In this document: positions 7,373 through 45,695 of the stretch, one piece after another | Layout: the number at the start of each line of letters is the position of its first letter | Position numbering within the stretch: position 1 is the first letter of the stretch | IMG/VR virus record: IMGVR_UViG_3300048838_001273 | Span: 1-64,000 of that record | Length of the DNA stretch: 64,000 nucleotides | Strand: one strand, 5' to 3' | Source: a virus | Notes under the pieces: model-generated | Told to the model about the DNA's origin: nothing | The model's input: the letters and a program-made list of their open reading frames with translations, nothing else | The model's database searches: none | Position numbers and translations under genes: made by a program

Positions 7373-8206
7373 TTATTTTAGTCCTTGTATTAATGTATCA
7401 CCATATTTAATTCCATCATATCCCATTTTCATTGCTTTCTCAGCAATTGCCTTATTTTTTAAGTTAGATGATGTGGTGTTATGTTTTTTACTTAATTCTT
7501 CAAAATTGACATTTGGAAACCAAATTTTTGCCATAATATCTGCAGGTTCTTGGCTGTCTTTATATGTTACACCCAATGCATTTGTATCTAAAAGATTGTC
7601 GAATTCAATCTGATATTTACTAAATCCGGCAAGCGGTTTTAACGTAAAGAAATTACCAACCACAGAATTTTCTTTTATCGGGTCTTTTCTGTATGCAATA
7701 ATTGTTTGTTGATTACTGTTTGAGTTTTCGGTTTGAATGCTGGCATTATCTTCTTCCAATGTAGATAAGAATTCACTTCTGTCAGTGTAGTTATTATCAA
7801 TATCGTTTTCGTCATTAATGATATCATTATTTACAACTTCCTCCATGCCACTTGCTTGCTCATAATCATAAATATCCTGAATTTTATTTAAAATTCTACA
7901 AGCATCTTTCTCATTTGCCTTGATTTTGACTGCTTTAATTCGAACATTATCGAGCAAAGCACGAACCATTCTATGATGACCATCCAAAACTTTTAAATCA
8001 TCGCTAATCCAAATGGGTTTCATATCATCGAGAGAGATATTTCCAACATCATCACTAAATGTAATGCCCTGTAATGGTTGTAATTCGTTAGCATCGACTT
8101 CAACCATTTCATAATCCACACCCTCATCACCAAGTTTTTGTAATACAACACTAAATGGTGCACTAACTTGTGGAAGAAAACGTGGTTTATATCTCATGTC
8201 AATCAT
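7373..8206 (-). CDS. ParB/Srx-like domain protein
   Basis: 'LQPLQ...KPIWISDDLKVLDGHHRMVRAL' ParB-N motif. Confidence 0.7.
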   Translation of the reverse strand: MIDMRYKPRFLPQVSAPFSVVLQKLGDEGVDYEMVEVDANELQPLQGITFSDDVGNISLDDMKPIWISDDLKVLDGHHRMVRALLDNVRIKAVKIKANEKDACRILNKIQDIYDYEQASGMEEVVNNDIINDENDIDNNYTDRSEFLSTLEEDNASIQTENSNSNQQTIIAYRKDPIKENSVVGNFFTLKPLAGFSKYQIEFDNLLDTNALGVTYKDSQEPADIMAKIWFPNVNFEELSKKHNTTSSNLKNKAIAEKAMKMGYDGIKYGDTLIQGLK

Positions 8207-8230
8207 TATAATTATTTTTCTATAAATACA

Positions 8231-8800
8231 TTAAATTATAATTTTTTTTATTTCTTCCTGAATTATACACAATAAATTACGAGCACGACTTGATTCTGTC
8301 AATGCTAATGTTCCATTATTGGCAACATAAATATTGAATTCAATACCCTCCGGTATTTGACTTCTAATTGCTTCATATGCCTCAAGGTCTGTATCACGGT
8401 CTTCAAATACATCAATTATTTTTAAATCTGGAAATTGTTGAAGATACCTGAGAACCTTAACACCCTTATTGCCTTCAGCACGTTTCATATCAAGTTTATC
8501 TACCTTAATGTTATTTATATCAAGTACTGCCTGAACTTGTGGACGTAATTTTTCCATACGTGATGTCAATATTATCACATAAGAATTTGGTAATACAATT
8601 TCCTTTTTTAATTGCATTAACACACTTGGAAACGGTTTGATATCAAACACATTTAAATCCAAACTTTCAGGTCTTCCCCACCAACCTTGATACGGATATG
8701 GAGTGCCAGTCTTTTCAGACCACTGCGGTTTTCCGGTTTCTGGTTCAGGAGAATCCATTAATGTTCCATCAAAATCAAATACTGCCAATTTTGTAATCAT
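8231..8800 (-). CDS. HAD-family phosphatase (RNA-repair 'Swiss army knife' HAD-like)
   Basis: Motif I 'VFDFDGTL', 'GWW', motif II 'ILTSR', motif IV 'FEDR'. Confidence 0.8.
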   Translation of the reverse strand: MITKLAVFDFDGTLMDSPEPETGKPQWSEKTGTPYPYQGWWGRPESLDLNVFDIKPFPSVLMQLKKEIVLPNSYVIILTSRMEKLRPQVQAVLDINNIKVDKLDMKRAEGNKGVKVLRYLQQFPDLKIIDVFEDRDTDLEAYEAIRSQIPEGIEFNIYVANNGTLALTESSRARNLLCIIQEEIKKIII

Positions 8801-8807
8801 AACAACT

Positions 8808-9191
8808 TTATTTATATTCTACTTCAACTACTTTTCCAGATATTAATAATGGTCTCTTTAATTTTTGCCAATCAGTTAATTTGTTTGACATCATTGGCTT
8901 ACCACCATTTGCCCGATTTACTGCCAAGGTGATGTGTGGTTTAACATTTTTACTTTCAAATCCACTGACTCCAACAGCGATTACCTTATCGTCCATTGCA
9001 ATATCATCAACACTTAAACGCACTGGCATACCCAGAAATTTTTGAAATTCGGGGTCTAATTCACCCAAATTAATAGTCATGTGGTGTGCAATAATTTCAA
9101 ATTCAGATGGTATTATTGTTTTAAATCGATTTATTAGTCTCGTTCTGGATTGCTCATCCAGCACAACAGCACTATATGATACATTACTCAT
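8808..9191 (-). CDS. 2H phosphoesterase (2',3'-cyclic phosphodiesterase-like)
   Basis: Two HxT motifs 'HHMTINLG' and 'PHITLAV'; ATG at 9191 preferred over the longer ORF-track start. Confidence 0.75.
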   Translation of the reverse strand: MSNVSYSAVVLDEQSRTRLINRFKTIIPSEFEIIAHHMTINLGELDPEFQKFLGMPVRLSVDDIAMDDKVIAVGVSGFESKNVKPHITLAVNRANGGKPMMSNKLTDWQKLKRPLLISGKVVEVEYK

Positions 9192-9195
9192 TTGT

Positions 9196-9408
9196 TTATT
9201 TTTTATTCCATTTCCAAATATAACCACCTGCAGTCTTTCTCAAACCATTACACACTTCAGATATATGTAGAATGCCAGTTTTATTAGTTGCTTCGGTATA
9301 TGAAGAAAATTTATTTATTATTTCATTATTTTTATTCAGCATTATAACGGGTTTTGATAGCAATACACCAATTATTGGTTTTTTTTGACCTTTTAATGAT
9401 TTCGACAT
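9196..9408 (-). CDS. NUMOD1-like DNA-binding fragment (C-terminal part of split homing endonuclease)
   Basis: 'KFSSYTEA..KTG...ISEVCNGLRKTAGGYIWKW' NUMOD1/IENR1 pattern. Confidence 0.7.
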   Translation of the reverse strand: MSKSLKGQKKPIIGVLLSKPVIMLNKNNEIINKFSSYTEATNKTGILHISEVCNGLRKTAGGYIWKWNKK

Positions 9409-9779
9409 TACATCGGATTTCCACCTCCACGTCTCTTTATTTTTGATTCTTCACTCCATTTAGTGCCAAGTCTTGACTTTCCGACAGAGCAGATATTATA
9501 TCCAAAATCACGACAATTTGAATCGTATAATAATATGTATTTTCGCTCTAATTCCAATAATTTATTAATTTCAATATCATCATAAGATTCAATAATATTA
9601 AATGAAAAACCACTTTCTCCATACTTATTCCAAGCATTTTGTAATATTGGATTTTCATGTGTGTTTTTTTGCAATTGTTTCTTATGTGTTTTAAATCTAA
9701 TATCGAATGATTTTAAAGTACTACCAACATAAATTTTATTATTTATGTTATTTTTTATTATATATATTCCCACACACAT
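9408..9779 (-). CDS. GIY-YIG homing endonuclease (N-terminal part; possibly pseudogenised)
   Basis: 'GIYIIKN..NNKIYVGS', 'RFKTH', 'LQNAWNKYG', 'GYNI'; stops at 'GNPM' inside a NUMOD3-like motif. Confidence 0.8.
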   Translation of the reverse strand: MCVGIYIIKNNINNKIYVGSTLKSFDIRFKTHKKQLQKNTHENPILQNAWNKYGESGFSFNIIESYDDIEINKLLELERKYILLYDSNCRDFGYNICSVGKSRLGTKWSEESKIKRRGGGNPM

Positions 9780-9798
9780 CGCTAATTAATTCATAATA

Positions 9799-10104
9799 TT
9801 ACTCATCTTCGTTTTTCCATATTAAAATACCTGACCCATTATCAACAGTTTTTTTTATCAAATCACCATCTTTATGATATTCTATACCACAAAATCTATG
9901 TGATTCGGCAATGTATTCAAAACTAATTTCATCATATCTGTCACTTAAATCAATTACATCCAAAATGTGTTTATGATTTAAATTTCTTAATGCAAAAGAT
10001 AGTAATTCATTTTCGGTATTAACTCTTTCCAAACCGGAATATTTTCCACCATCATGCCTCGGACAATTTGGAAAATATTCAATTGAAAATACAAAGCCAT
10101 TCAT
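9799..10104 (-). CDS. Hypothetical protein
   Basis: 101-aa ORF in operon context. Confidence 0.55.
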   Translation of the reverse strand: MNGFVFSIEYFPNCPRHDGGKYSGLERVNTENELLSFALRNLNHKHILDVIDLSDRYDEISFEYIAESHRFCGIEYHKDGDLIKKTVDNGSGILIWKNEDE

Positions 10105-10118
10105 TTTGCCTCCCGATT

Positions 10119-13100
10119 TTATTGCTTTAAATTAATTCTACCTTCATTTAATATATCTCTATCATTAATAATCCAATACATTTCCTGAATTAATCTTGTG
10201 TCGTGCGAGAAATCCTCGTAGTTATTCTGCAAGAATTCAAGAATTGATGCTTTACTGACATCCCGGTATGCTGGTTTACCATTTTGATTATTCCATTCAT
10301 CATATTTTTCAACAAAAAAATGAATATCTACTTCACGTCCATTAATATTCCAAGTATAGGGTTTTTGAAAATCCCCTCTATACCCCATATATTCTTTTAA
10401 ATAATTATAATAAACGTGACCGCCTTTTAAAAATTGTGGGGCATAATCAAACTTTGGTGAGTCAACAATCTCATCATTAATTTCCTTATTTATAATTCCC
10501 AGATATCCCGTTAACCAGTCTTTTCTGTCTGGACTTAATGGTGTTACTTCAATATGTTTATTCGTTTCTCTATCATACACCCACCAGTGTTCGACAAATG
10601 ATGTGCCATATTGTATCATATATCCACCAACCGGATAATATTTTTCGGGATATGTTTTTACCATATTATAAGCATTTCTTTCACATTGTCCAGCAACACC
10701 CATTGGATTATATGTTACAGAATCTCTATCAAGATATTCAAATCCCTTTGAAATTGCCTTATCAAATATTTCCTGCTTCTGTTGATTGAACTGTAATTCA
10801 GCACTTTCAGTCAATTTTGATTTACTTCCACCCGCCAAACTTAATAATTCTTCTTTATTATTCCTAATTTTACCAGCATAAATCTTCAACAGCATTGATT
10901 TTAATGTATCACCAATCTCTTTACCCTGTAGTCCCAATGCCATTAAATCATTGCCATTAACAGCTAACTCACCCAATGTTTTTGGATATTTACCTTCCAG
11001 TAATTCCTGTGCTGCGGTTTCGATTACAGTAGGTAATATTTTACTCTGCAACGATTGCTGCGAAGTCACATACATGTTGTGCGCAATAGACCTTGCCTCA
11101 ATCGCACTCACGCTTTCAGCACCATCAAATGCCATGTCAAGTGCCTTAATTTCCTTATAGGTATCAATGTCACCCTTTAAATTATTTTTATAATAGTCTG
11201 CAGGATTCGGTAATAACCTAATTAATAAGAAAATAAACTCACCCATTGTCTGAACATCATCAAAGGGACTTCTATCAATGGTTGATTGTTTAATGTCAAA
11301 CCCAAAAATCTGATTGAATAATCCAGTGTTTTTTAATAGTTGAGCACCTGTCAACATATTACCCTTTTTGACAATTTTATCAAATTCTGTCAAAATTCTT
11401 TCAGCAGGTATTTCTTTAATTCTACTTGCGTTCTCCTGAATCATTTTCATTGTAACAGGTTCAATAGTAAAACCAAAACGACTTGCGAATTGAACTGCAC
11501 GCAGCATACGCAACGGGTCATCACTAAACGCTTCCGGGTTGACTATACGAATAATTTTATCCTTTAAATCCTGTTGTCCACCATAAGGGTCAACAATATT
11601 ACCATTAACATCTTTTGCAATAGCATTAATGGTAAAATCTCTGCGTTCCAAATCTTTCTCAATTGGTAATGCATGGTCTGAACTTACTTCAAAACCCTTA
11701 TGACCACCATCTCCGGTAGGTTTTTCGGTTCTTGGAATTGCGATATCAATTTCTTCACTCGAACCCTTTGACTTGAATTTTAATATACCAAACGATTTAC
11801 CGACTGCATCAACACGACCGTATTGACTGAGAATTTGTTCCAGTTCATCCATTGAAATACCAGTGATAAGTACATCCAAATCCTTAGATTCTTTACCCAA
11901 GAATTCATCACGAACAGCACCACCAACGCTGAATATTTTACCCCCACGTTTTTCAACTTCAGGTTTAAATGGTAATTGTTCTAATGACATTATTTGTGCT
12001 TCGTTCATATTTTCTCTATTATTGTGAACTTGTTTCCATATACATCTGTGAAATTCGTCATATCCCAATTCCCCACCTAATTTAATAATTGGGTTTGATT
12101 TTATTTCCAAATTGATTTTCAACGGCAAATTTAATACTTTTGCAGCATAAAACCTATGGTGTCCGTCCTCAATATAGAAATTTTTTCCATCGAAAGACAC
12201 ATCTATCGGTTCTTCGAGACTCACCTTTTCAGCATATTGTCTGTCAGTCAATCCTTTATGCTTAATTTCATATTTAACATTTTCGAAATCATCTTTCCAT
12301 TTAATTGAAAGTTTATCCGGTGTTATAGATTTTAATGTGTCTTCATTAAATCCAAAAGCAGCCATATCCAACATGTCTGTTGGAATTCCACCGCTTCTTA
12401 AAAGTTTTTCATCTGAATCGAAACCAGCAACATAATTTTTTATTTCATCTGTTATTCGTATTTCATGACAAGCTGGTTTCTGATTTTCCGTTAAGTTTTT
12501 TTTCTTTTTAATTAAAATCTCTTTATTATCTACGGTATATTCATATCCATTTGGTATGTTTTTTATCACGTATTGTAGATACAATGAAAACCTTCTTTTA
12601 TCATCAACACTTTTAGTTTTAGTGGGTTCAATAACAACAATATCGGGATTTTTTTCAGCAAAAAACTGCCTGATTAATTTTATTATCGTACCCATTACTT
12701 TATACATTCTGCCTTTATTCACAACAGCAATATAAACCTGTGCTGGATTTTTATAATCCAAAATACCGAAATCTATTCTCCACATATTTTCTGTTTCATC
12801 TCTCACGAATTCCAGAAAATATTCATCATTGTCTTCAGTTGTAAATTTGTATATTTTAACCAATTCATCGTCTCTTTCAGTCGTGACCTGATAATCACCA
12901 ATGTTTCCTTCACCCACCTCATTTATTGATTCAGCGAAGTCTTCATAATCTTCAGGTGATTTTTCTGGTATAACAGGAACTTTACTTCCATACTTTCTAC
13001 GAACATATTCGTCAATTGTTGCTTCTCTATATCCTAACAATCCACCTATTTCTCTTGCTTCTTCAGGAGTTTTATCGCTTAGATACCCACCATGACTTTT

Positions 13101-16100
13101 AGCAATTGCGTATAGTCTTTCACCTTTTACTTTATCTCTGAAAACAACACACATCATTGAAGACCGGGATGCCATTCTTACAGGTAAAATTTGTAATCCG
13201 TGTTTTTGAATTTTACCTGCATTATCTTTATTAACCTCAATAAATGCAACATCTCTTTTACCGGACAATAGTGTTTTTAATGCGCCTTGGTCTGTATATG
13301 CTTCGCTTGCATCGATTTCTTCACTTAACATCGAATTACTCCATTGTTTAGTCAAAATTAGATAACCACCATCACCGTCTTCGCCAATAACTTCACCACT
13401 TATATCAAATTCTTCTATATCTGAAAAATCTGGTTCTTCTGAATATCTTTTAGCGTCTTCAAATGTTTTTGTTACCCAGACTATATCACGAGCATTATAC
13501 TTATCTAACTCCTTGAGCATTTCATCACTTATATGTTCGAAATCCCCAACATTTCCTAACTCATCACGCTCAAATCTCACCACATCACCAGCAGTAGTAC
13601 CACGACTATTGGTATAATTAGAATTAACACGATATCCTTTTCCAGAATATGTTTCTTCATTTAATTTCGTACTTTTTGGTAACCTATACATTAACTGCAT
13701 TGTCTGGAAATCCTTGTTCTTGCCTTTATTCATTACGAACCCCAAAGAACCATACCATGCCTTTAACTTAGCTACGCTTGCACCCCAAACATTATCAGGT
13801 GTTAATGTAATAATTAAATTATTATTATCGGCATATTCCAATATTATATTCATGGCAGCATTGGCGTAACCTTTGCCTCTGAAATTCTTGTCAATTATAA
13901 TCTTATCAATTGCAATATAGTGGTTATTCCCCTGTATGCCTCTATCTACAATACCTACACTACCAACAACCTGACCATCATTTGTTATCTGAAAAGAATC
14001 ATATCCAGAAAGTTTAGTCGGAATGTTAATTTTAACTTCCTCACTAATTGAACCAAATTTCAAATTATTAATATCGCCTTGATTACAAGCAACACTGGTA
14101 TTACCCAGACCACCTAATCTACACTTTTTTTTTACTTCTACAGATTGTGCTCCCGGCATATATGATTTCTTCCTGTCTTCATTATACATTGCAGAATTAG
14201 CACCAACATTATTTTCTATTGATGGTGATGTATCGTTTTGATTATATGCAGGAAATCCATCTTGACCCAAATCGCTGTCTGTTGAGAATTTAGAACTACC
14301 ATCTTCTGTTACTTCTATTTTCTCAAGGTTCTTTGGTTGTAAAAAACCATTTCCAAATCCCACATCAAAGAAACCCAAAGCACCGTTCTTTTTGTAACCT
14401 AAATTGCTGTGATTTAAGTAATCCATGCTTTGTATACCATATGATTTCGTTTCTTCTGCGATTCGAAGTAAACCACCAAAAAACTCAGCATCCTGTGAAT
14501 TCTTTTTAAAGTATGAATCTATTTTGTTTTTATCTACTTTTGGATTATCCCACTCACCGAGATAGTGTTCAATCACATCTGGAATACTAAGACCCAATAT
14601 TTTTTCAAATGCAAAATCTAATCTTTTATATAGTCTTTCAATGTTTGGGTCAGTATCTAACTTCTCCAAGATAATTGCATATGTTTTAGGTATTGTAGTG
14701 TTTGTCTTAGCTTCAATTTCATAGACTTTATATGGCTGCGCAATATATTTTAAAGGTATACCTATAAGCATTAAATTTTCTGCTGCCTCACTATTATCTT
14801 TAGTGATTTTTAGTACTTTATCGTTACCGATATCATAAGCAACACCAAAATTACCACCCTTCATTGGTGTGACGTTTATATTTAACTTAGCTGCAACTTG
14901 ATTGGCAATTCTGTCCGCAAGATTTCTATCATAGTCTTCAGAAATCTGACTCTCTTCTAATCTAATAATATTATCTCCAATGTTTGGTTCTTCTGCCTTA
15001 TAACCACCGATATCGAAATACGTCAATACTCCGTCTTTATATCCAAGATTTCCAATTGTTATATAATCAGTAGACCTTATATCATAATCAAGTAGTTCTT
15101 GTCTTATATTTAATATTCCAAGAAGATAATTAAATGCATATTTTCTATCTATTTCATCTACATTTGCTTTCGGGTTTTCCGTTAACACAAGTTTAGCTAT
15201 CTCCAACGCTTCATCATAATTAAATCTTGTGGCTTTTTTTATATAGATTAATATATCTTCATATGTCATGCCGTTTGGCATTATGTTGGTTATGTCATTC
15301 TGATATTTTCTTATTTTTTCAAGAGGCTTGTCTTTTATATTTTCTTGAATTATTGCATAATATGCAACATTTTTTTCGGTATCGACAACCTTATATATTG
15401 CAAATGTTTGTGCAAGATATTTAGGATTACCACGCATTAGTTTTAACGAAGAATCTGCTTCACTTATGTCTGAAGTTATTTTTATTATTCTTTCATTATC
15501 TAACTCAAACGCAAATCCATATCCACCACCACCCATGTATGTTGGTTTAGGTAATTTTAAATATTCTGCTGCACTATCCGCTAATTCTTGGGCATAGGCT
15601 CTATCGTCCAAACTAAATGGTTTAACGTTTGGGTCGGGTTTTTCTTGTTCAACAATACTATATTCATCTAAATCAATTGGGTCTCTATCATAAACTTTTT
15701 GTTGAATAAGGTATTCTTGTAATTTTAATAGATTTTTATAGAATTTTTTATTATCATCTACACGATTCAACACTTCCTTTAAGTTATTTACTGTATCGTG
15801 GAAATTATCTAAAAGATTCGGAATACCAGAAATCGGTTTTTGTGGATATTTATCCCTGTTTAAGACGAAATTTATAAATTCTTCATTAACCATTCCATCA
15901 CCGTCACCAACACCATAAGGTGTTAATGCCCACATTCCCTGACGAATAACTGTTGTATCTCCTATATCTGAAAGTATGTCATCATTACCATGTAAATTAT
16001 TGTAGATTTCATATACTCTATATTTTTCCTTACGTTGTGGATTATAATGTGTATCATATACCTCATCGTTTAATCCATAGTCAGTAAGAACAATAGTGGG

Positions 16101-16643
16101 TTGACCATTACGTAAAACTTCACCATATGAACTTGGTCTGCCGAAATCTCCGGGTGATTGATTATAGTTATGCATGAGATTTTGTAAATCTTGTGCAAAT
16201 TCATTCTCGTAAAAAAATTCAACGGTTTCAGGTTTTTGTCCAAATATTGCTCTCTTACCTTTATTCTGTTCATAATCATTTCTGAGATAATAGTACAAAT
16301 CGTTTAAACTCGGAATTCCGGTTAACTCTTTAATTCTTTTTTCAGTAACCTTTTTACCTTTTTCCGCAACAATCCAAGCACCATCATTATCAAATTCAAA
16401 TATTTTAGTTACAATATCGTGTGTATCTTGATATCTACCAACATCAGATTCTGCATCATTTTGTGCTGCACCCTTTGTGTTTTTAGCTATTTTAAACACC
16501 TTTTCGCCATCAATGTCATAGACAATTCTACCACTACCACTACCTATTCTCTGTAAATATTGGTCGGCAAATTTAATTTTACCAGCGAAAGATTTGATTT
16601 CTTCGAATTGGTCTAAGAAATTTAAAAACTCATCGTATGTCAT
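10119..16643 (-). CDS. Giant multidomain (polyvalent) protein: three kinase-like domains, GNAT, possible ART-like, ParB-like, CCA-adding/tRNA nucleotidyltransferase, C-terminal Cys-His (transglutaminase-like) domain
   Basis: Kinase-like GxGxxG..K..DxG x3 (~14350-16550); GNAT 'FRGKGYA...WYGSLGF' (~13680-14010); 'IEDGHHR' (~12150); class II nucleotidyltransferase 'VGGAVRD..DLD', 'DLERRDFTINA', 'DDPLRMLRAVQF' (~10840-11995); 'CERNA...HWWV' (~10400-10790). Confidence 0.85.
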   Translation of the reverse strand: MTYDEFLNFLDQFEEIKSFAGKIKFADQYLQRIGSGSGRIVYDIDGEKVFKIAKNTKGAAQNDAESDVGRYQDTHDIVTKIFEFDNDGAWIVAEKGKKVTEKRIKELTGIPSLNDLYYYLRNDYEQNKGKRAIFGQKPETVEFFYENEFAQDLQNLMHNYNQSPGDFGRPSSYGEVLRNGQPTIVLTDYGLNDEVYDTHYNPQRKEKYRVYEIYNNLHGNDDILSDIGDTTVIRQGMWALTPYGVGDGDGMVNEEFINFVLNRDKYPQKPISGIPNLLDNFHDTVNNLKEVLNRVDDNKKFYKNLLKLQEYLIQQKVYDRDPIDLDEYSIVEQEKPDPNVKPFSLDDRAYAQELADSAAEYLKLPKPTYMGGGGYGFAFELDNERIIKITSDISEADSSLKLMRGNPKYLAQTFAIYKVVDTEKNVAYYAIIQENIKDKPLEKIRKYQNDITNIMPNGMTYEDILIYIKKATRFNYDEALEIAKLVLTENPKANVDEIDRKYAFNYLLGILNIRQELLDYDIRSTDYITIGNLGYKDGVLTYFDIGGYKAEEPNIGDNIIRLEESQISEDYDRNLADRIANQVAAKLNINVTPMKGGNFGVAYDIGNDKVLKITKDNSEAAENLMLIGIPLKYIAQPYKVYEIEAKTNTTIPKTYAIILEKLDTDPNIERLYKRLDFAFEKILGLSIPDVIEHYLGEWDNPKVDKNKIDSYFKKNSQDAEFFGGLLRIAEETKSYGIQSMDYLNHSNLGYKKNGALGFFDVGFGNGFLQPKNLEKIEVTEDGSSKFSTDSDLGQDGFPAYNQNDTSPSIENNVGANSAMYNEDRKKSYMPGAQSVEVKKKCRLGGLGNTSVACNQGDINNLKFGSISEEVKINIPTKLSGYDSFQITNDGQVVGSVGIVDRGIQGNNHYIAIDKIIIDKNFRGKGYANAAMNIILEYADNNNLIITLTPDNVWGASVAKLKAWYGSLGFVMNKGKNKDFQTMQLMYRLPKSTKLNEETYSGKGYRVNSNYTNSRGTTAGDVVRFERDELGNVGDFEHISDEMLKELDKYNARDIVWVTKTFEDAKRYSEEPDFSDIEEFDISGEVIGEDGDGGYLILTKQWSNSMLSEEIDASEAYTDQGALKTLLSGKRDVAFIEVNKDNAGKIQKHGLQILPVRMASRSSMMCVVFRDKVKGERLYAIAKSHGGYLSDKTPEEAREIGGLLGYREATIDEYVRRKYGSKVPVIPEKSPEDYEDFAESINEVGEGNIGDYQVTTERDDELVKIYKFTTEDNDEYFLEFVRDETENMWRIDFGILDYKNPAQVYIAVVNKGRMYKVMGTIIKLIRQFFAEKNPDIVVIEPTKTKSVDDKRRFSLYLQYVIKNIPNGYEYTVDNKEILIKKKKNLTENQKPACHEIRITDEIKNYVAGFDSDEKLLRSGGIPTDMLDMAAFGFNEDTLKSITPDKLSIKWKDDFENVKYEIKHKGLTDRQYAEKVSLEEPIDVSFDGKNFYIEDGHHRFYAAKVLNLPLKINLEIKSNPIIKLGGELGYDEFHRCIWKQVHNNRENMNEAQIMSLEQLPFKPEVEKRGGKIFSVGGAVRDEFLGKESKDLDVLITGISMDELEQILSQYGRVDAVGKSFGILKFKSKGSSEEIDIAIPRTEKPTGDGGHKGFEVSSDHALPIEKDLERRDFTINAIAKDVNGNIVDPYGGQQDLKDKIIRIVNPEAFSDDPLRMLRAVQFASRFGFTIEPVTMKMIQENASRIKEIPAERILTEFDKIVKKGNMLTGAQLLKNTGLFNQIFGFDIKQSTIDRSPFDDVQTMGEFIFLLIRLLPNPADYYKNNLKGDIDTYKEIKALDMAFDGAESVSAIEARSIAHNMYVTSQQSLQSKILPTVIETAAQELLEGKYPKTLGELAVNGNDLMALGLQGKEIGDTLKSMLLKIYAGKIRNNKEELLSLAGGSKSKLTESAELQFNQQKQEIFDKAISKGFEYLDRDSVTYNPMGVAGQCERNAYNMVKTYPEKYYPVGGYMIQYGTSFVEHWWVYDRETNKHIEVTPLSPDRKDWLTGYLGIINKEINDEIVDSPKFDYAPQFLKGGHVYYNYLKEYMGYRGDFQKPYTWNINGREVDIHFFVEKYDEWNNQNGKPAYRDVSKASILEFLQNNYEDFSHDTRLIQEMYWIINDRDILNEGRINLKQ

Positions 16644-16696
16644 GTGTTAAATTATAGTATATCCATAAATACAAACTTAGTAATAAAAACATTAAG

Positions 16697-16725
16697 AAAA
16701 AAAGCGCAATTGTTATTGCGCTTTT
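16697..16725 (-). terminator. Intrinsic terminator
   Basis: AAAAGCGCAAT/ATTGCGCTTTT inverted repeat overlapping the stop codon of 16713..17408. Confidence 0.6.
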
Positions 16726-20068: not shown

Positions 20069-23000
20069 TTAATATTCATCACTGTCATCAAAATCAGCAT
20101 TTAAATATTCACTGGCTTCGCTTTCAATTTCACCTTCTTGTTCATTGACGTAATCTTCAAACGCTTCATCGGAATGTGGAATTTCGGTAAACATTTGTTC
20201 CATAGTTAAACCCGCAGGAATGCCATATTGTTTTTTAAATCCAGAAAAATGTTTCTCTCTTTTTTTAGTTTGTGCATCTAAATACAAGTCAGTCTCGGTC
20301 TTTGTAGTTAGTTCAGACATTTCTAATTGCTTGAGTTTATTTTCTTCTTCTTCACGCTTTCTGTCAAGTTCCAATTCAACCTCACTCTTGGGGATTTCTA
20401 TATTGGCTCTGACAATCTGCATGTACACCCCATTATATGCACCAACATGATATTCGCTACCGTCTTTAATTAAAACTAAATCACCCTCACCATATTCATC
20501 ATTTATTGATTTGATTCTCGGCTTATTGCTTGCAACCATTTTATCGTTAAGGAATTTCAATGCACTATCGTAAATTTCATAGTATATTTTATTATCCTCA
20601 GTCATTTTAAACCCATTCCATATAAGTCTTGGGTCATATCCGGTTTTATTCCAGAAATCTACCTCAAGTTTTTCCAGATGCATTGCTTCATCATAATTAT
20701 CCAAATCAAAATTCTTCAACACCAATTCATCATTTAATGGATTAAAATCACTTTTAATTAAATGACCATCTTTACCGATTTTAACTAAAATCTTGGATTG
20801 TACTTCGGGTGCAAATCCAACCAGTAGTGATTCTACACGCTTATTGAATCCATCAAGATATTTCTCGTAATTATATTCACCAGTCATATTTGGATTTTCC
20901 TGTAAATCTTCATTTGTAATTAAAGATGCACAGAATCTTTCAACACCAGTTTCCTTATCAGTAATTTTACGTGAATCGCCATGAGATTTCTTATAACCAG
21001 TATTGACATAATATACTACACTATCCAATTCAGGTTCTTGTGGCATGTAATTAGCAACAAGTTTCGTTATTTCTTCAATACTTGGATTCTCTTTTAGTTT
21101 TTCGAGATTAAGACTATCTTTATGTTTTTCAAATAATTCCCTTGCAATATTTTCACGTTTTTCAATAAGAAGTTCCATGTGTGCTTGCATACCCTTGTCT
21201 CTGCCGTTCTTATCCTTACCTCTTTTCTTGTATGCGCTTATTGTGGTTTTTATCTTACTTTTACTCGCAATCTTTTTCAAAGGAATTCTCATGTATCTGA
21301 TGTCATCACAATAATCATGGTAATAACTAACAAATTCTTTTCCTTTACCATGTAGAATTAAATCCAGACCCTTATCAATGAATTCCTCAATGTATTCAGG
21401 CATTACTTTGGATTTGATTGTGTTTCCAGTAAGTTTAATTTTTTCTTTTTCCTTACCAGTTTTCTTATCCTTCGACATTGAAAGAGTTGCGTAATTTATT
21501 CTCGAAAGATTTAAACAAGAAATAGAAACACCATCATTATCAACTGCCATGAATGGCTTCGACATTTCTTCATCATTAAACTTCTCAATGAGTGCTTCAA
21601 TTCCGGTTTTACCACCGTATTGCCACATTTCTTCAATTGTACCTTCTACCTCACCATGTACCACGCCTTCATTAGTTACTCTGATTGTTGTTTTTTCGGG
21701 ATAATGGAAGTTAACACCATCAGTAACAGCCAACAATGCCACACAACCGAAATCAGTAAACCAACTGATTGCATGTCTTAATTCAACCCTACCACTACAA
21801 GTAATCCTTGCAGCACAAACATTATCAGACCAGTTAAATGAAACACCTGAACCCAAAGCACCAAACAATGAGTTGTTCAGAATCTTAATAGGTAACTGTT
21901 TGATTTTCGCCATCGCACCTTCTTTCCCGGATATCTCACCATTAATATATTTTTGGTGTATTTCATGGTCGATTTCCTTTAGAAGTGTAACTTCCTCATT
22001 ATTAAGTTTACTACCATTTGCCAACTTTTTGTAAATGTTACGTGTTGTTGTCAAATATAAAAGCATTTTTTTCAAAACACCTGTGATATCAAACATCGGG
22101 AAGATATCATGTGTTAATTGAAGCATCGGGTAAAGAGATGCAAAGTCGATTTTTATAATTCTTTCAGTATAGCCTGATTTAAAACACCTTGCCAATCCAC
22201 CGGAAAATCTTTCGGGTTTATCGCAATGAGGAATAGCCAAATCATTTTCATAACTCCAAGCAGTCATCAATAAGTTCCAAATACCAGCACTACCCATCGT
22301 ACAAATACGCTGATATGTGGTTGGAACTATTTTTGCCAACATGAATGATGACTGATTATAAAGTTCATCGACTTGTTCGGTTTCCCAAAGGTCATCAAGC
22401 AAGTATTGCTTTACAAGTTTTTTACCGCTAATAAATGTTGTAAGTTTTTTCGGTACTGCGACCTCTCTAAACCAACCAACAAATGATTTATTTTCATCCA
22501 AATGCCTTTTCTTATATGAACTATATTCCCCATCAGTTAAATTCGATTTACTGGTTTGCAGAATATATAGTTTTTTGGCAACATCCTGATATTCATCAGG
22601 TATTTGAACATAATTGTTTGTTTCATCAATAAGGAAAATCTTATTTTCGGTGTAAAATCTACCAATTGAATTGTCTTCACCGTCAATATACGTTCTATTG
22701 TCTCTTGCAACCTTTTCAAACTTCGCAATATATTTTAATCCTGTTTCTTTTAAATCAGAGTTTACTGCTGCAGTTCTTTTTGTGGCATGTAATATATCAA
22801 TTACTGAATATCCCCACATTTCGGTTGCGGTATACTTATCAGCAGTGTTACCATATTTAACACTAACATTACCCCTTCTTTTAAGAGGCATTTCCTCTTT
22901 TAATGAGGTGGGTACACCGGATAAATCCATTTTGAGTTCCTTGGCTCTACCCAAAATAAAGTCGAAGTCAAAACCTTCAGAATAATACCCCGAAATAACC

Positions 23001-23734
23001 GCAGGTCTGAGATAATCAATTAAATTAAAAAAGTCTTGAATTAATGCTATTTCTGATTCATCGTCATTAGGTTTTTCTACTTCAAGTATTGTTTCGAAAC
23101 CCCTGTTATCCCGAACACCGATTGCAAATACTCTTGCGACCTGAAATCTTAAACCAGTGGTTTCAATGTCAAAAGTTACTTTATGAACATCCTTGTATTC
23201 TTCAAACCCCTTATATAGTCTGGTCTGATTTGAAATAAAGAATTGTTCGGTTGTTCTTGGTGCATAAAATAAATCACGATAAAGATAAATAGAATCACCC
23301 TTTTTATCCTTTACGTCCTTGCCGTATTCATCCTTCAGCTTTTCAAAAGGATTTAAACCACCTTCTCTGAAATAACCAACGATACTATTATATGATTTGC
23401 TACTTGTTACCTTAAAACAGTAGCCATCGACAAGTCTTTTTTGGTTTCCGGTTTTTAGCTTATGTATTTTAATCCCGAATAGGACTTTCATACTTTCTTT
23501 AAGTTCCTCACTTTTACCGGGATATAAGACACGGTTTAGTTTCTCCAAATCCTTTACATACATGAAAGGTTCGTATTCTATTTTTACAATCTTTTTGTCT
23601 TTGCCGGGTTCATGTATTACACATTCAGCATAATTTGTGTTAGGGTCAGTTTCAACATTTACCAAATACTTTATTTTATCATCGTAGCCTTCAAGAAAAC
23701 TCTTAATTTCGCCAAGTACTTTTAATTTATCCAT
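20069..23734 (-). CDS. Family B DNA polymerase
   Basis: ExoI 'FDIETTG', ExoII 'GFDFDFI', motif A 'DFASLYP', motif B 'KILNNSLFG', motif C 'VTDG'. Confidence 0.9.
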   Translation of the reverse strand: MDKLKVLGEIKSFLEGYDDKIKYLVNVETDPNTNYAECVIHEPGKDKKIVKIEYEPFMYVKDLEKLNRVLYPGKSEELKESMKVLFGIKIHKLKTGNQKRLVDGYCFKVTSSKSYNSIVGYFREGGLNPFEKLKDEYGKDVKDKKGDSIYLYRDLFYAPRTTEQFFISNQTRLYKGFEEYKDVHKVTFDIETTGLRFQVARVFAIGVRDNRGFETILEVEKPNDDESEIALIQDFFNLIDYLRPAVISGYYSEGFDFDFILGRAKELKMDLSGVPTSLKEEMPLKRRGNVSVKYGNTADKYTATEMWGYSVIDILHATKRTAAVNSDLKETGLKYIAKFEKVARDNRTYIDGEDNSIGRFYTENKIFLIDETNNYVQIPDEYQDVAKKLYILQTSKSNLTDGEYSSYKKRHLDENKSFVGWFREVAVPKKLTTFISGKKLVKQYLLDDLWETEQVDELYNQSSFMLAKIVPTTYQRICTMGSAGIWNLLMTAWSYENDLAIPHCDKPERFSGGLARCFKSGYTERIIKIDFASLYPMLQLTHDIFPMFDITGVLKKMLLYLTTTRNIYKKLANGSKLNNEEVTLLKEIDHEIHQKYINGEISGKEGAMAKIKQLPIKILNNSLFGALGSGVSFNWSDNVCAARITCSGRVELRHAISWFTDFGCVALLAVTDGVNFHYPEKTTIRVTNEGVVHGEVEGTIEEMWQYGGKTGIEALIEKFNDEEMSKPFMAVDNDGVSISCLNLSRINYATLSMSKDKKTGKEKEKIKLTGNTIKSKVMPEYIEEFIDKGLDLILHGKGKEFVSYYHDYCDDIRYMRIPLKKIASKSKIKTTISAYKKRGKDKNGRDKGMQAHMELLIEKRENIARELFEKHKDSLNLEKLKENPSIEEITKLVANYMPQEPELDSVVYYVNTGYKKSHGDSRKITDKETGVERFCASLITNEDLQENPNMTGEYNYEKYLDGFNKRVESLLVGFAPEVQSKILVKIGKDGHLIKSDFNPLNDELVLKNFDLDNYDEAMHLEKLEVDFWNKTGYDPRLIWNGFKMTEDNKIYYEIYDSALKFLNDKMVASNKPRIKSINDEYGEGDLVLIKDGSEYHVGAYNGVYMQIVRANIEIPKSEVELELDRKREEEENKLKQLEMSELTTKTETDLYLDAQTKKREKHFSGFKKQYGIPAGLTMEQMFTEIPHSDEAFEDYVNEQEGEIESEASEYLNADFDDSDEY

Positions 23735-34926: not shown

Positions 34927-34985
34927 TAAATATACTTTTTAATAAATACTTACGAGAAACGTTTTATCGGAAAGCAGATAAAAAT

Positions 34986-45612: not shown

Positions 45613-45695
45613 GAACAAAATATTTATTTTATAATTATAATTTTTTATACTTTTTTATAAATACGAAACTAATTCAAAAAATCCCGATTTACAAG

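Follow-up and report, generated by a model that had tools for sequence, protein, structure and literature searches.

A candidate polyvalent cargo polyprotein with conserved phi-x-E module junctions in a putative T4-related jumbo phage

We analysed positions 1 to 64,000 of the IMG/VR virus record IMGVR_UViG_3300048838_001273 (hereafter the window), part of a 78.9-kb virus contig estimated to hold 22% of its genome. Reading the open reading frames (ORFs) of the sequence confirmed a giant ORF of 2174 amino acids on the minus strand, which an earlier note on this DNA had described as a late polyprotein cut into about ten enzymes by a T4-type prohead protease. A whole-length search returned at least 188 related proteins of 1200-2900 amino acids in metagenomes, and a profile scan found 97 viral contigs with a family gene, twelve of them ~300-366 kb long; scanning viral contigs with the single protein gave no relative, and an alignment-based scan was required. 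Compared across this family, the giant protein is a chain of modules that are shuffled among relatives, with widely varying order and content, and that are joined at a conserved tripeptide consisting of a hydrophobic residue, a variable residue and glutamate (phi-x-E). The modules and the other features of the locus are collected in Table 1.

Table 1 The giant gene, its modules, surrounding features and related loci. Coordinates are window positions unless a locus or accession is given; residues are those of the giant protein.
Feature	Coordinates (strand)	Residues	Description
Giant ORF	10119..16643 (-)	1-2174	
D1 segment	15882..16643 (-)	1-254	MTYDEF helix, kinase-like D1 (~1-188), conserved low-confidence 205-254, end VNE254
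Conserved stretch	15894-16031 (-)	205-250	
Helical segment	15648..15881 (-)	255-332	End IVE332 (INE in most relatives)
D2 segment	14952..15647 (-)	333-564	Kinase-like D2, G-loop GGGGYG, K388, E395, D526, N532, D544, end LEE564
D3 segment	14304..14951 (-)	565-780	Spacer to ISE569, kinase-like D3 (K612, E619, D741, N747, D760), end VTE780
Linker	14178..14303 (-)	781-822	Conserved, low-confidence (DGSSKFST...), end YNE822; relatives have phi-x-E then R
CNQGD element	14040..14177 (-)	823-868	46 aa, RKKSYMPG..VKKKCRLGGLGNTSxACNQGDINNL..[IV]xE, ends ISE868
GNAT module	13656..14039 (-)	869-996	GNAT acetyltransferase, Pfam Acetyltransf_1 30.4 bits, end LNE996
DGDGGYL module	13320..13655 (-)	997-1108	DGDGGYL motif, end LSE1108
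NleE-like module	12918..13319 (-)	1109-1242	'IDASEAY', end INE1242
Second GNAT-like module	12486..12917 (-)	1243-1386	'VGEGN' module, end LTE1386
ParB/sulfiredoxin-like module	12000..12485 (-)	1387-1548	DGHHR motif (~residue 1494), end MNE1548
CCA module	10806..11999 (-)	1549-1946	Class II CCA-adding enzyme / tRNA nucleotidyltransferase, end LTE1946
Orphan module	10392..10805 (-)	1947-2084	'Cys-His enzyme' of the earlier note, end LKE2084, pLDDT ~30-60
C-terminal module	10143..10391 (-)	2085-2167	Small, pLDDT 93-96, end LNE2167 (100% conserved)
Giant-ORF tail, then insertion	9196..10142 (-)		Tail of 7 residues + stop; 101-aa ORF 9799-10104; GIY-YIG 9408-9779; 70-aa ORF 9196-9408
Detached modules	8231..9191 (-)		2H cyclic phosphodiesterase 8808-9191; HAD-like phosphatase 8231-8800
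277-aa protein	7373-8206 (-)		'LDGHHR' motif
DNA polymerase gene	20069-23734		
Promoter-like motif	16665..16672 (-)		GTATTTAT (variant GTATTTATGG), 22 nt upstream of the giant-gene ATG
GTATTTAT(A) sites, examples	2923-2930, 8222-8229, 16665-16672, 34942-34949, 45657-45664 (-)		
Terminator-like hairpin	16695..16721 (-)		gcgcaat-aaca-attgcgc + T run; closes the upstream transcription unit, as read from the sequence
Split-half proteases	L084 G001:C1:212760-216053; L085 G003:C1:301242-304541; L086 G004:C1:295720-298914; L186:6640-8544(-)		
D1-like stand-alone ORFs	XacN1 ORF170 (L187, AP018399.1 81006-81653); Xoo-sp13_166 (L188)		Xanthomonas jumbo phages

Modules of the giant protein

AlphaFold models were obtained for residues 1-869 (predicted local distance difference test, pLDDT, 73) and 1109-2174 (pLDDT 76), neither of which includes residues 996-1108; alignments A3 and A4, in which short modules were misplaced, were left out of folding. 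Low-confidence stretches fall at residues 189-250, 325-335, 555-569, 780-833, 839-858 and 866-869 of the first model and at 1225-1252, 1382-1390, 1543-1550, 1942-1954, 2035-2094 and 2163-2174 of the second. Module frequencies were counted across 120 homologues by coverage along the query. Residues 1-870 are kept in nearly all family members, and residues 870-1550 form a variable cassette region.

Residues 1-188, 345-545 and 572-760 (D1 to D3) are protein-kinase-like, matching APH(2'')/Hanks kinases in Foldseek with probability 1.0 and a modest E value of ~5e-4. All three are short, at ~190 amino acids, and no Pfam kinase model matched them. The Lys/Glu/Asp/Asn/Asp sets of D2 and D3 are nearly invariant or invariant in alignments A1/A2; D1 is more divergent and matches phrog_4301 over residues 14-209. 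Among cultured phages, megablast with the giant gene found nothing, and tblastn returned matches to the CCA module, stand-alone D1-like ORFs in XacN1 and Xoo-sp13, and nothing else. These ~210-amino-acid ORFs (27-29% identity) are the sole cultured-phage relatives of the N-terminal 869 residues; they lie among auxiliary genes encoding a 5'-nucleotidase, a GNAT protein, a macro domain and glutaredoxins, and ORF170 goes unmentioned among the virion proteins in the XacN1 paper.

Within the cassette region, the GNAT module occurs in ~36 of the 120 homologues and the DGDGGYL module, which gave no Pfam match and no credible profile match to PDB sequences, in ~17. The commonest accessory module, found in ~64, is NleE-like: residues 1109-1221 match NleE 4r29_A (VIA Z 10.8, root-mean-square deviation 2.8, 109 residues aligned, covering NleE residues 86-220 only), and the Pfam NleE model scores 13.4 bits here, below its cut-off, and 27.3 bits in the relative P0061, while a profile of the module against PDB sequences gave no credible match. 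Residues 1249-1381 match many GNAT chains at a middling Z of ~7-8 and give a weak DUF6934 match (19.6 bits); the module that contains them is present in ~12 homologues. The ParB/sulfiredoxin-like module, present in 13-29, aligns over residues 1434-1518 with sulfiredoxin 6ky4_A (Z 7.8, 77 residues aligned) and weakly matches phrog_1033, and PF02195 is recorded for relatives.

The CCA-adding enzyme (residues 1550-1940) is carried by ~112 of the 120 homologues. It matches Pfam PolyA_pol (PF01743, 82.7 bits) and PolyA_pol_RNAbd (PF12627, 56.3 bits), phrog_2244 (E 2e-67) and 1miv_A (Z 29.7 over 373 residues); judged by its sequence and model, it has the Pol-beta head, neck and body of the class II fold. 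The small C-terminal module (~2090-2167) is found in ~77 homologues. Between these two, the orphan module has no homologue in the family set, and an ESM Atlas search with it gave only unnamed clusters, a YunG-like match at 0.88 being a weak lead. Neither the orphan nor the C-terminal module has a fold match among the 50 matches listed, a list filled by CCA and GNAT-like matches. Scanned one by one against Pfam, D1-D3, the CNQGD element, residues 997-1108, the orphan module and the C-terminal module had no match. No MPTase or MuF was found in the protein, and the family has no MPTase or papain-like module. Relatives carry, as further modules, ART-PolyVal (53 bits), 2H/Acb1-like and HAD.

The kinase, GNAT, ParB-like and CCA calls of the earlier note are borne out by these Pfam, Foldseek and fold matches. 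Its 'Cys-His enzyme' at residues 1947-2084 is not, having no family relatives, a poor model and no fold match among those listed. We dropped both this assignment and a self-protease role for the module, because the junction motif occurs throughout the family and the module in the query alone.

In conservation the CNQGD element, present in nearly all 120 homologues, surpasses every other piece of the family, enzymatic domains included. Its only two cysteines are 12-14 residues apart, its model is of low confidence, and phi-x-E sites lie on both flanks; P0023, P0042 and P0076 carry two copies in tandem. Its terminal E868 is conserved in 98% of 182 aligned segments, with 128 breakpoints there. 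In each genome examined, the element was found in the giant protein only. Possible roles are those of a head-internal peptide, a binding element or a targeting element. A second conserved non-enzymatic stretch, residues 205-250, has invariant E212, G219, N220, D222, L224, W238, P242 and G248 and is modelled as disordered; family members without D1 start exactly there (MAKEKYQLYELFNF..), and it may be a conserved binding peptide. We also considered a targeting tag shared across several proteins, which found no support: in G000 and G003 no other ORF has the CNQGD element, the GNDDILSD stretch or the MTYxEF start found at the N-terminus.

Junctions between the modules

The earlier note had placed L/I/M-x-E motifs at nearly every domain boundary. 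All of the listed motifs occur where they were said to, and three of them, MVNEE, VTED and YNED, do not fit the L/I/M-x-E pattern: the query has V or Y at 254, 780 and 822, where most relatives have I, L, V or M. Taking as family-conserved any phi-x-E site kept in at least 60% of aligned homologues, we found such sites with many breakpoints at E254, 332, 564, 569, 780, 868, 996, 1108, 1238/1242, 1386, 1548, 1946 and 2084. Conserved sites without breakpoints, at 94, 101, 290, 395, 434, 660, 1744, 1753, 1802, 1892 and 2136, lie inside folded domains. E2167 is likewise conserved and showed no breakpoints in this analysis; it is counted as a junction because ~70 relatives attach a 2H module there. 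Nearly all junction sites fall inside the low-confidence stretches of the models, E254 lying four residues past the edge of 189-250.

Breaks between relatives mark the same positions. The ends of query-relative BLAST alignments cluster at E254, 564, 569-572, 868-870, 996, 1106, 1241, 1545-1546 and 1946, with a further cluster at 2094-2097, ~10 residues beyond LKE2084. When 177 family proteins were compared all against all, 52% of the 1893 peaks of high-scoring segment pair ends have phi-x-E within ±3 residues, compared to 18.9% at random positions, and Glu is the exact last aligned residue in 640 of the 1893 (~34%, against ~2% expected), counts that represent non-independent events since the proteins are mutually related. 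Module shuffling at these boundaries in relatives, which the earlier note had suggested looking for, is seen, with ~34% of break peaks directly after the Glu.

The junction logo reads L45 I31 V14 M8 at position -2, N30 K13 D13 P11 at -1, E at 0 and E21 D14 G12 N12 at +1. Codons at the junctions are diverse, with the hydrophobic residue encoded by at least 8 codons and the middle residue being N, K, D, P, S or T around a fixed Glu, and the conservation is therefore at the amino-acid level, a conserved DNA word being ruled out. Regardless of the module upstream, phi-x-E precedes the GNAT, NleE-like, VGEGN, ParB-like, CCA, C-terminal and 2H modules, as in ..VNE|KVNLNLP (GNAT), ..INEE|IDASEAY, ..LNE|VGEGN, ..MNE|AxIMSLQDLP (CCA) and ..LLxE|E.VKRVSYSAVVLD (2H).

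The 3' end of the giant gene offers an example of a junction at which the chain appears to have been broken. In ~70 relatives the C-terminal module is followed by ..LLxE| and then the 2H module, with HAD next in two relatives. Here the ORF stops 7 residues after LNE2167, and an insertion that includes a GIY-YIG homing endonuclease (43.6 bits), apparently in two ORFs, occupies the site of the C-terminal/2H junction of relatives. On this comparison, 9196-10104 is a mobile insertion that split the ancestral polyprotein gene at the junction. Beyond it, the detached 2H ORF matches tRNA_lig_CPD (23.2 bits) and is 50-76% identical to the C-terminal module of ~70 relatives, and the C-terminal ends of P0110 and L180 match the HAD ORF. 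Some relatives, in addition, have a stand-alone CCA gene starting within ~5 residues of the CCA junction. Junctions therefore tolerate a break in the chain, which fits products that are separate when mature and, equally, enzymes that need no packaging.

Head genes, promoter-like motif and N-terminus

A Peptidase_S77 protein, of the T4 gp21 family, is encoded in all five complete relatives tested (299-363 kb). One of these, G003 (339,898 bp with terminal repeats, fetched whole), has a Peptidase_S77 match of 48.9 bits, a gp23-type capsid protein, a gp20-type portal and homologues of gp19 and gp25. Between its protease and capsid genes lies a gene for a Lys/Glu-rich scaffold-like protein with 30 phi-x-E sites against 16.0±3.3 expected, the same kind of excess as in T4 gp22 (21 against 11.1±2.7). 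In T4, gp21 acts within the prohead, internal proteins are targeted by a capsid-targeting sequence (CTS), and Alt is cut by gp21 after Glu at ITE-6 and LTE-619 (PMC5694885). In three of the five complete relatives, the gp21-family protease is a ~650-amino-acid ORF whose two Peptidase_S77 halves are ~370-430 amino acids apart. Probably an intein, the insert in the G003 protease begins with Cys and gives a weak Pfam Intein_splicing match of 23.3 bits, short of the cut-off. The gp21 homologues of G002 (G002:C1:174225-174692) and G005 (G005:C1:86740-87207) are free of this intein-like insert.

The window has 19 copies of the promoter-like motif GTATTTAT, compared to 7.4±2.6 expected, and every one is on the minus (coding) strand. 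The motif marks structural and cargo-type genes and does not precede replication genes; read on the coding strand, it corresponds to the T4 late box TATAAATA in reverse complement. In G003 the motif lies upstream of the scaffold/major capsid protein, portal, gp19 and gp25 genes and of the giant-gene orthologue, and is absent upstream of those for DNA polymerase, primase-helicase, DnaB and exonuclease. The late-type motif reported earlier upstream of the giant gene is present and of the structural-gene type, which supports, without proving, that the giant gene is expressed late.

Most family members start MTY[DEAQ]EF[KL]xNFLPEF. T4 IPII and IPIII start MKTYQEFIAE|A, of which the family keeps Tyr-x-x-Phe; in the T4 CTS, Tyr4 and Phe7 are important for targeting, as are residues 8 and 10 for cutting (PMC9026906). 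In 112 of 123 such family N-termini a phi-x-E comes within the next 22 residues, most often at E13. The MTYxEF...LPE N-terminus resembles the T4 CTS, the likeness being short.

Proposed route, alternatives and gene neighbourhood

We hold it somewhat better than an even bet that the giant gene, in a T4-related jumbo phage of ~340 kb, specifies a polyvalent cargo polyprotein that would be packaged, cut by a gp21-type protease and injected. The analysis shows how the modules are arranged, the conserved junction motif and its place in linkers, the promoter motif, and T4-type head genes in relatives; that the chain is cut, by which protease, that it is packaged and injected, and what it acts on in the host are inferred. 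A GTATTTAT-type promoter would drive the giant gene together with the structural genes, and the chain would be targeted to the assembling prohead core, possibly by the N-terminal MTYxEF...L-x-E peptide. There, the phage gp21-family serine protease would cut after Glu in the [L/I/V/M]-x-E sites of the flexible inter-module linkers, freeing ~13-15 predicted pieces, more than the earlier estimate of about ten. These would be the three kinase-like enzymes, a 46-amino-acid basic two-cysteine peptide, the GNAT, NleE-like, second GNAT-like and ParB/Srx-like proteins, the CCA-adding enzyme, two modules of unknown fold (997-1108 and the orphan 1947-2084), the small C-terminal module, and short linker peptides. 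Retained in the head, the pieces would pass into the next host along with the DNA, where they would modify host proteins, restore tRNA 3' ends and weaken defences. As each junction would be a self-contained cleavage site, modules could be swapped, duplicated, lost or split without harm to their neighbours, which would explain the cassette-like variation of the family.

In a wider form, to which we give a little less than an even chance, this would be a true polyprotein strategy in a double-stranded DNA phage, in which the prohead serves as a processing chamber for one late-made chain, 'plug-and-play' L/I-x-E joints release more than a dozen effectors, including a virion-delivered CCA-adding enzyme, and the CNQGD element is a new head-internal peptide or packaging signal.

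The late, prohead-processed polyprotein put forward in the earlier note gains support from the junction sites, the gp21-family proteases of relatives, the T4-type capsid protein, portal and motif-enriched scaffold of G003, the promoter motif, the CTS-like start and the gene split, and several observations weigh against it. From the single sequence, the motif pattern is indistinguishable from chance: the query has 39 [LIM]xE sites against 30.9±4.7 in shuffles (p=0.06), which is not an enrichment, and within residues 1-869 only 7 of 23 such sites lie in low-pLDDT linkers, compared to 4.3 expected (p=0.12). The earlier note had taken motifs not enriched in linkers as a sign against its reading; the raw sites of residues 1-869 show no such enrichment, the family-conserved junction sites lie nearly all in low-pLDDT linkers, and the motif at nearly every domain boundary is upheld by the comparative data alone. 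The residue after the predicted cuts is mostly acidic or Gly, unlike the Ala/Ser of T4 cargo. No protease gene was found on the 78.9-kb fragment, which is ~22% of the genome. The giant gene sits amid replication and auxiliary genes, distant from the head module (in G003, 158-163 kb for the gene and 297-315 kb for the module). In the model the N-terminal helix belongs to D1 (pLDDT ~80), so the likeness to a CTS may be coincidental, and its MTYxEF start was found in no second ORF of G000 or G003. The split-off 2H and HAD genes and the stand-alone CCA genes show that these enzymes can also be made without the polyprotein, which fits a cytoplasmic role equally well. Finally, no cultured relative with a proteome was found, and the D1-like ORFs of XacN1 and Xoo-sp13 lie in non-structural neighbourhoods.

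Some of these points would suit an uncleaved cytoplasmic multi-enzyme for RNA repair or host modification, with phi-x-E merely a favoured linker or domain-capping motif, which we consider rather unlikely. CCA, 2H and HAD make up a plausible tRNA 3'-end repair set, and other RNA-repair genes lie in the window; all three occur as ordinary separate genes, the D1-like ORFs of the two Xanthomonas phages are surrounded by auxiliary genes, and the giant gene here has DNA polymerase, NUDIX and glycosyltransferase neighbours. Yet an uncleaved enzyme offers no known reason for unrelated domains all to start after [L/I/V/M]-x-E with an invariant Glu, a motif that matches the specificity of the T4-type head protease encoded by relatives. 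Repair enzymes acting at infection time would moreover be expected early, whereas the giant gene has the promoter motif of structural genes and not of replication genes.

The conserved junctions argue for cleavage and are silent on its place, and modules work as separate genes in some genomes, which leaves room for a polyprotein cut outside the capsid by a host or other phage protease into equimolar, unpackaged cytoplasmic enzymes. We judge this improbable: no other protease is seen in the protein, the family is without MPTase or papain-like modules, the only candidate (1947-2084) is unique to the query, and the sole Glu-cutting L/I-x-E protease found in these genomes is the gp21 homologue, which in T4 acts inside the prohead (PMC5694885). 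It is more doubtful still, to the point of being very hard to credit, that the junction motif is a recombination footprint, in which short shared nucleotide stretches drive cassette exchange and the peptide has no role. Module order and content do vary widely, and breaks do cluster at the motif; however, the codons are diverse, the middle residue is variable and the Glu fixed with no conserved nucleotide word, and the motif is also conserved at junctions 254, 564, 569 and 780, which are never shuffled.

Polyvalent proteins, a class for which packaging and injection have been predicted, carry 2-15 disparate domains in one phage or conjugative-element polypeptide (Iyer et al. 2017, PMC5512222). 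Their genes lie close to late or virion genes, and their characteristic domains are ART-PolyVal, truncated kinase, GNAT, DdrB-like ParB, 2H, MPTase and MuF. The giant protein is polyvalent in this multi-domain sense, with many unrelated enzymatic domains (short kinase-like, GNAT, ParB-like; 2H and ART-PolyVal in relatives). Self-processing in that class was proposed to be mainly by zincin-like peptidases and rarely by C-terminal assemblin-like peptidases, and its C-terminally truncated kinase type was reported mainly from phages of Bacteroidetes and Verrucomicrobia (PMC5512222). Unlike polyvalent proteins, the giant protein is without a zincin-like metallopeptidase, MuF, ArdC-N or other hub domains; its processing would be in trans, by the head protease at L/I-x-E junctions; its gene does not adjoin the head genes; and it holds a full CCA-adding enzyme and an NleE-like domain, neither of which was found by a term search of PMC5512222.

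With T4 IPI-III and Alt the proposed cargo would share a T4-type head module (gp20, gp21 and gp23 in relatives), the L/I-x-E after-Glu rule and a TYxEF...phi-x-E start that resembles MKTYQEFIAE, and Alt is itself a packaged host-modifying enzyme trimmed at both ends. T4 cargo is single-function and loses short propeptides, whereas here one 250-kDa chain with ~14 predicted internal cuts would yield separate enzymes. In phiKZ, 201phi2-1 and SPN3US, gp21-related S80 proteases cut ejection or inner-body proteins after Glu, sometimes at several sites (PMC5694885). These systems resemble the present one in being giant phages that package many proteins and have a three-residue motif containing Glu, at which cutting is predicted here. 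They differ in that their motif is S/A/G-x-E or A-x-E and that propeptides are removed from substrates whose function is mostly unknown, where here the substrate would be a chain of recognisable enzymes in interchangeable modules. The CCA module itself is an ordinary class II module, 30-45% identical to stand-alone CCA genes (phrog_2244) of hundreds of cultured phages, unlike which it is embedded in a polyprotein, between MNE1548 and LTE1946, behind a late-type promoter motif.

If the proposed route is correct, it would join the polyvalent-protein idea with T4 capsid targeting and gp21 processing in one mechanism and explain how giant phages evolve effector cocktails by cassette shuffling. A simple sequence rule, a conserved linker phi-x-E plus a gp21-type protease, would predict mature cargo in hundreds of uncultured huge phages and define the true boundaries of several unknown domains for separate expression and assay. 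The junctions would also offer natural modular joints through which foreign proteins might be loaded into T4-like capsids, and if a tRNA CCA-repair enzyme does reach the host along with the DNA, pre-emptive counter-defence would have taken a new form.

The contig has a GC content of ~33% and holds nearly all of its genes on the minus strand. The giant gene lies in a mixed set of replication and auxiliary genes plus gp25 and wedge genes: upstream are genes for a family-B-type DNA polymerase, a NUDIX protein and a WYL protein, and downstream those for the 2H phosphodiesterase, HAD phosphatase, a glycosyltransferase, gp25 and a baseplate wedge protein, with tail-fibre and replication genes in the remainder of the window. 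The DNA polymerase gene lies ~3.5 kb upstream of the giant gene in many relatives (L122-L128, L141, L147 and others). The order wedge, gp25, glycosyltransferase, ParB-like, giant, 231-amino-acid ORF, WYL, NUDIX, 208-amino-acid ORF, DNA polymerase is preserved in G003. Two transcription units downstream of the giant gene, the 277-amino-acid protein gave no Pfam match and carries a ParB/Srx-type 'LDGHHR' motif; its gene has the late-type promoter motif and an orthologue at the same position in G003.

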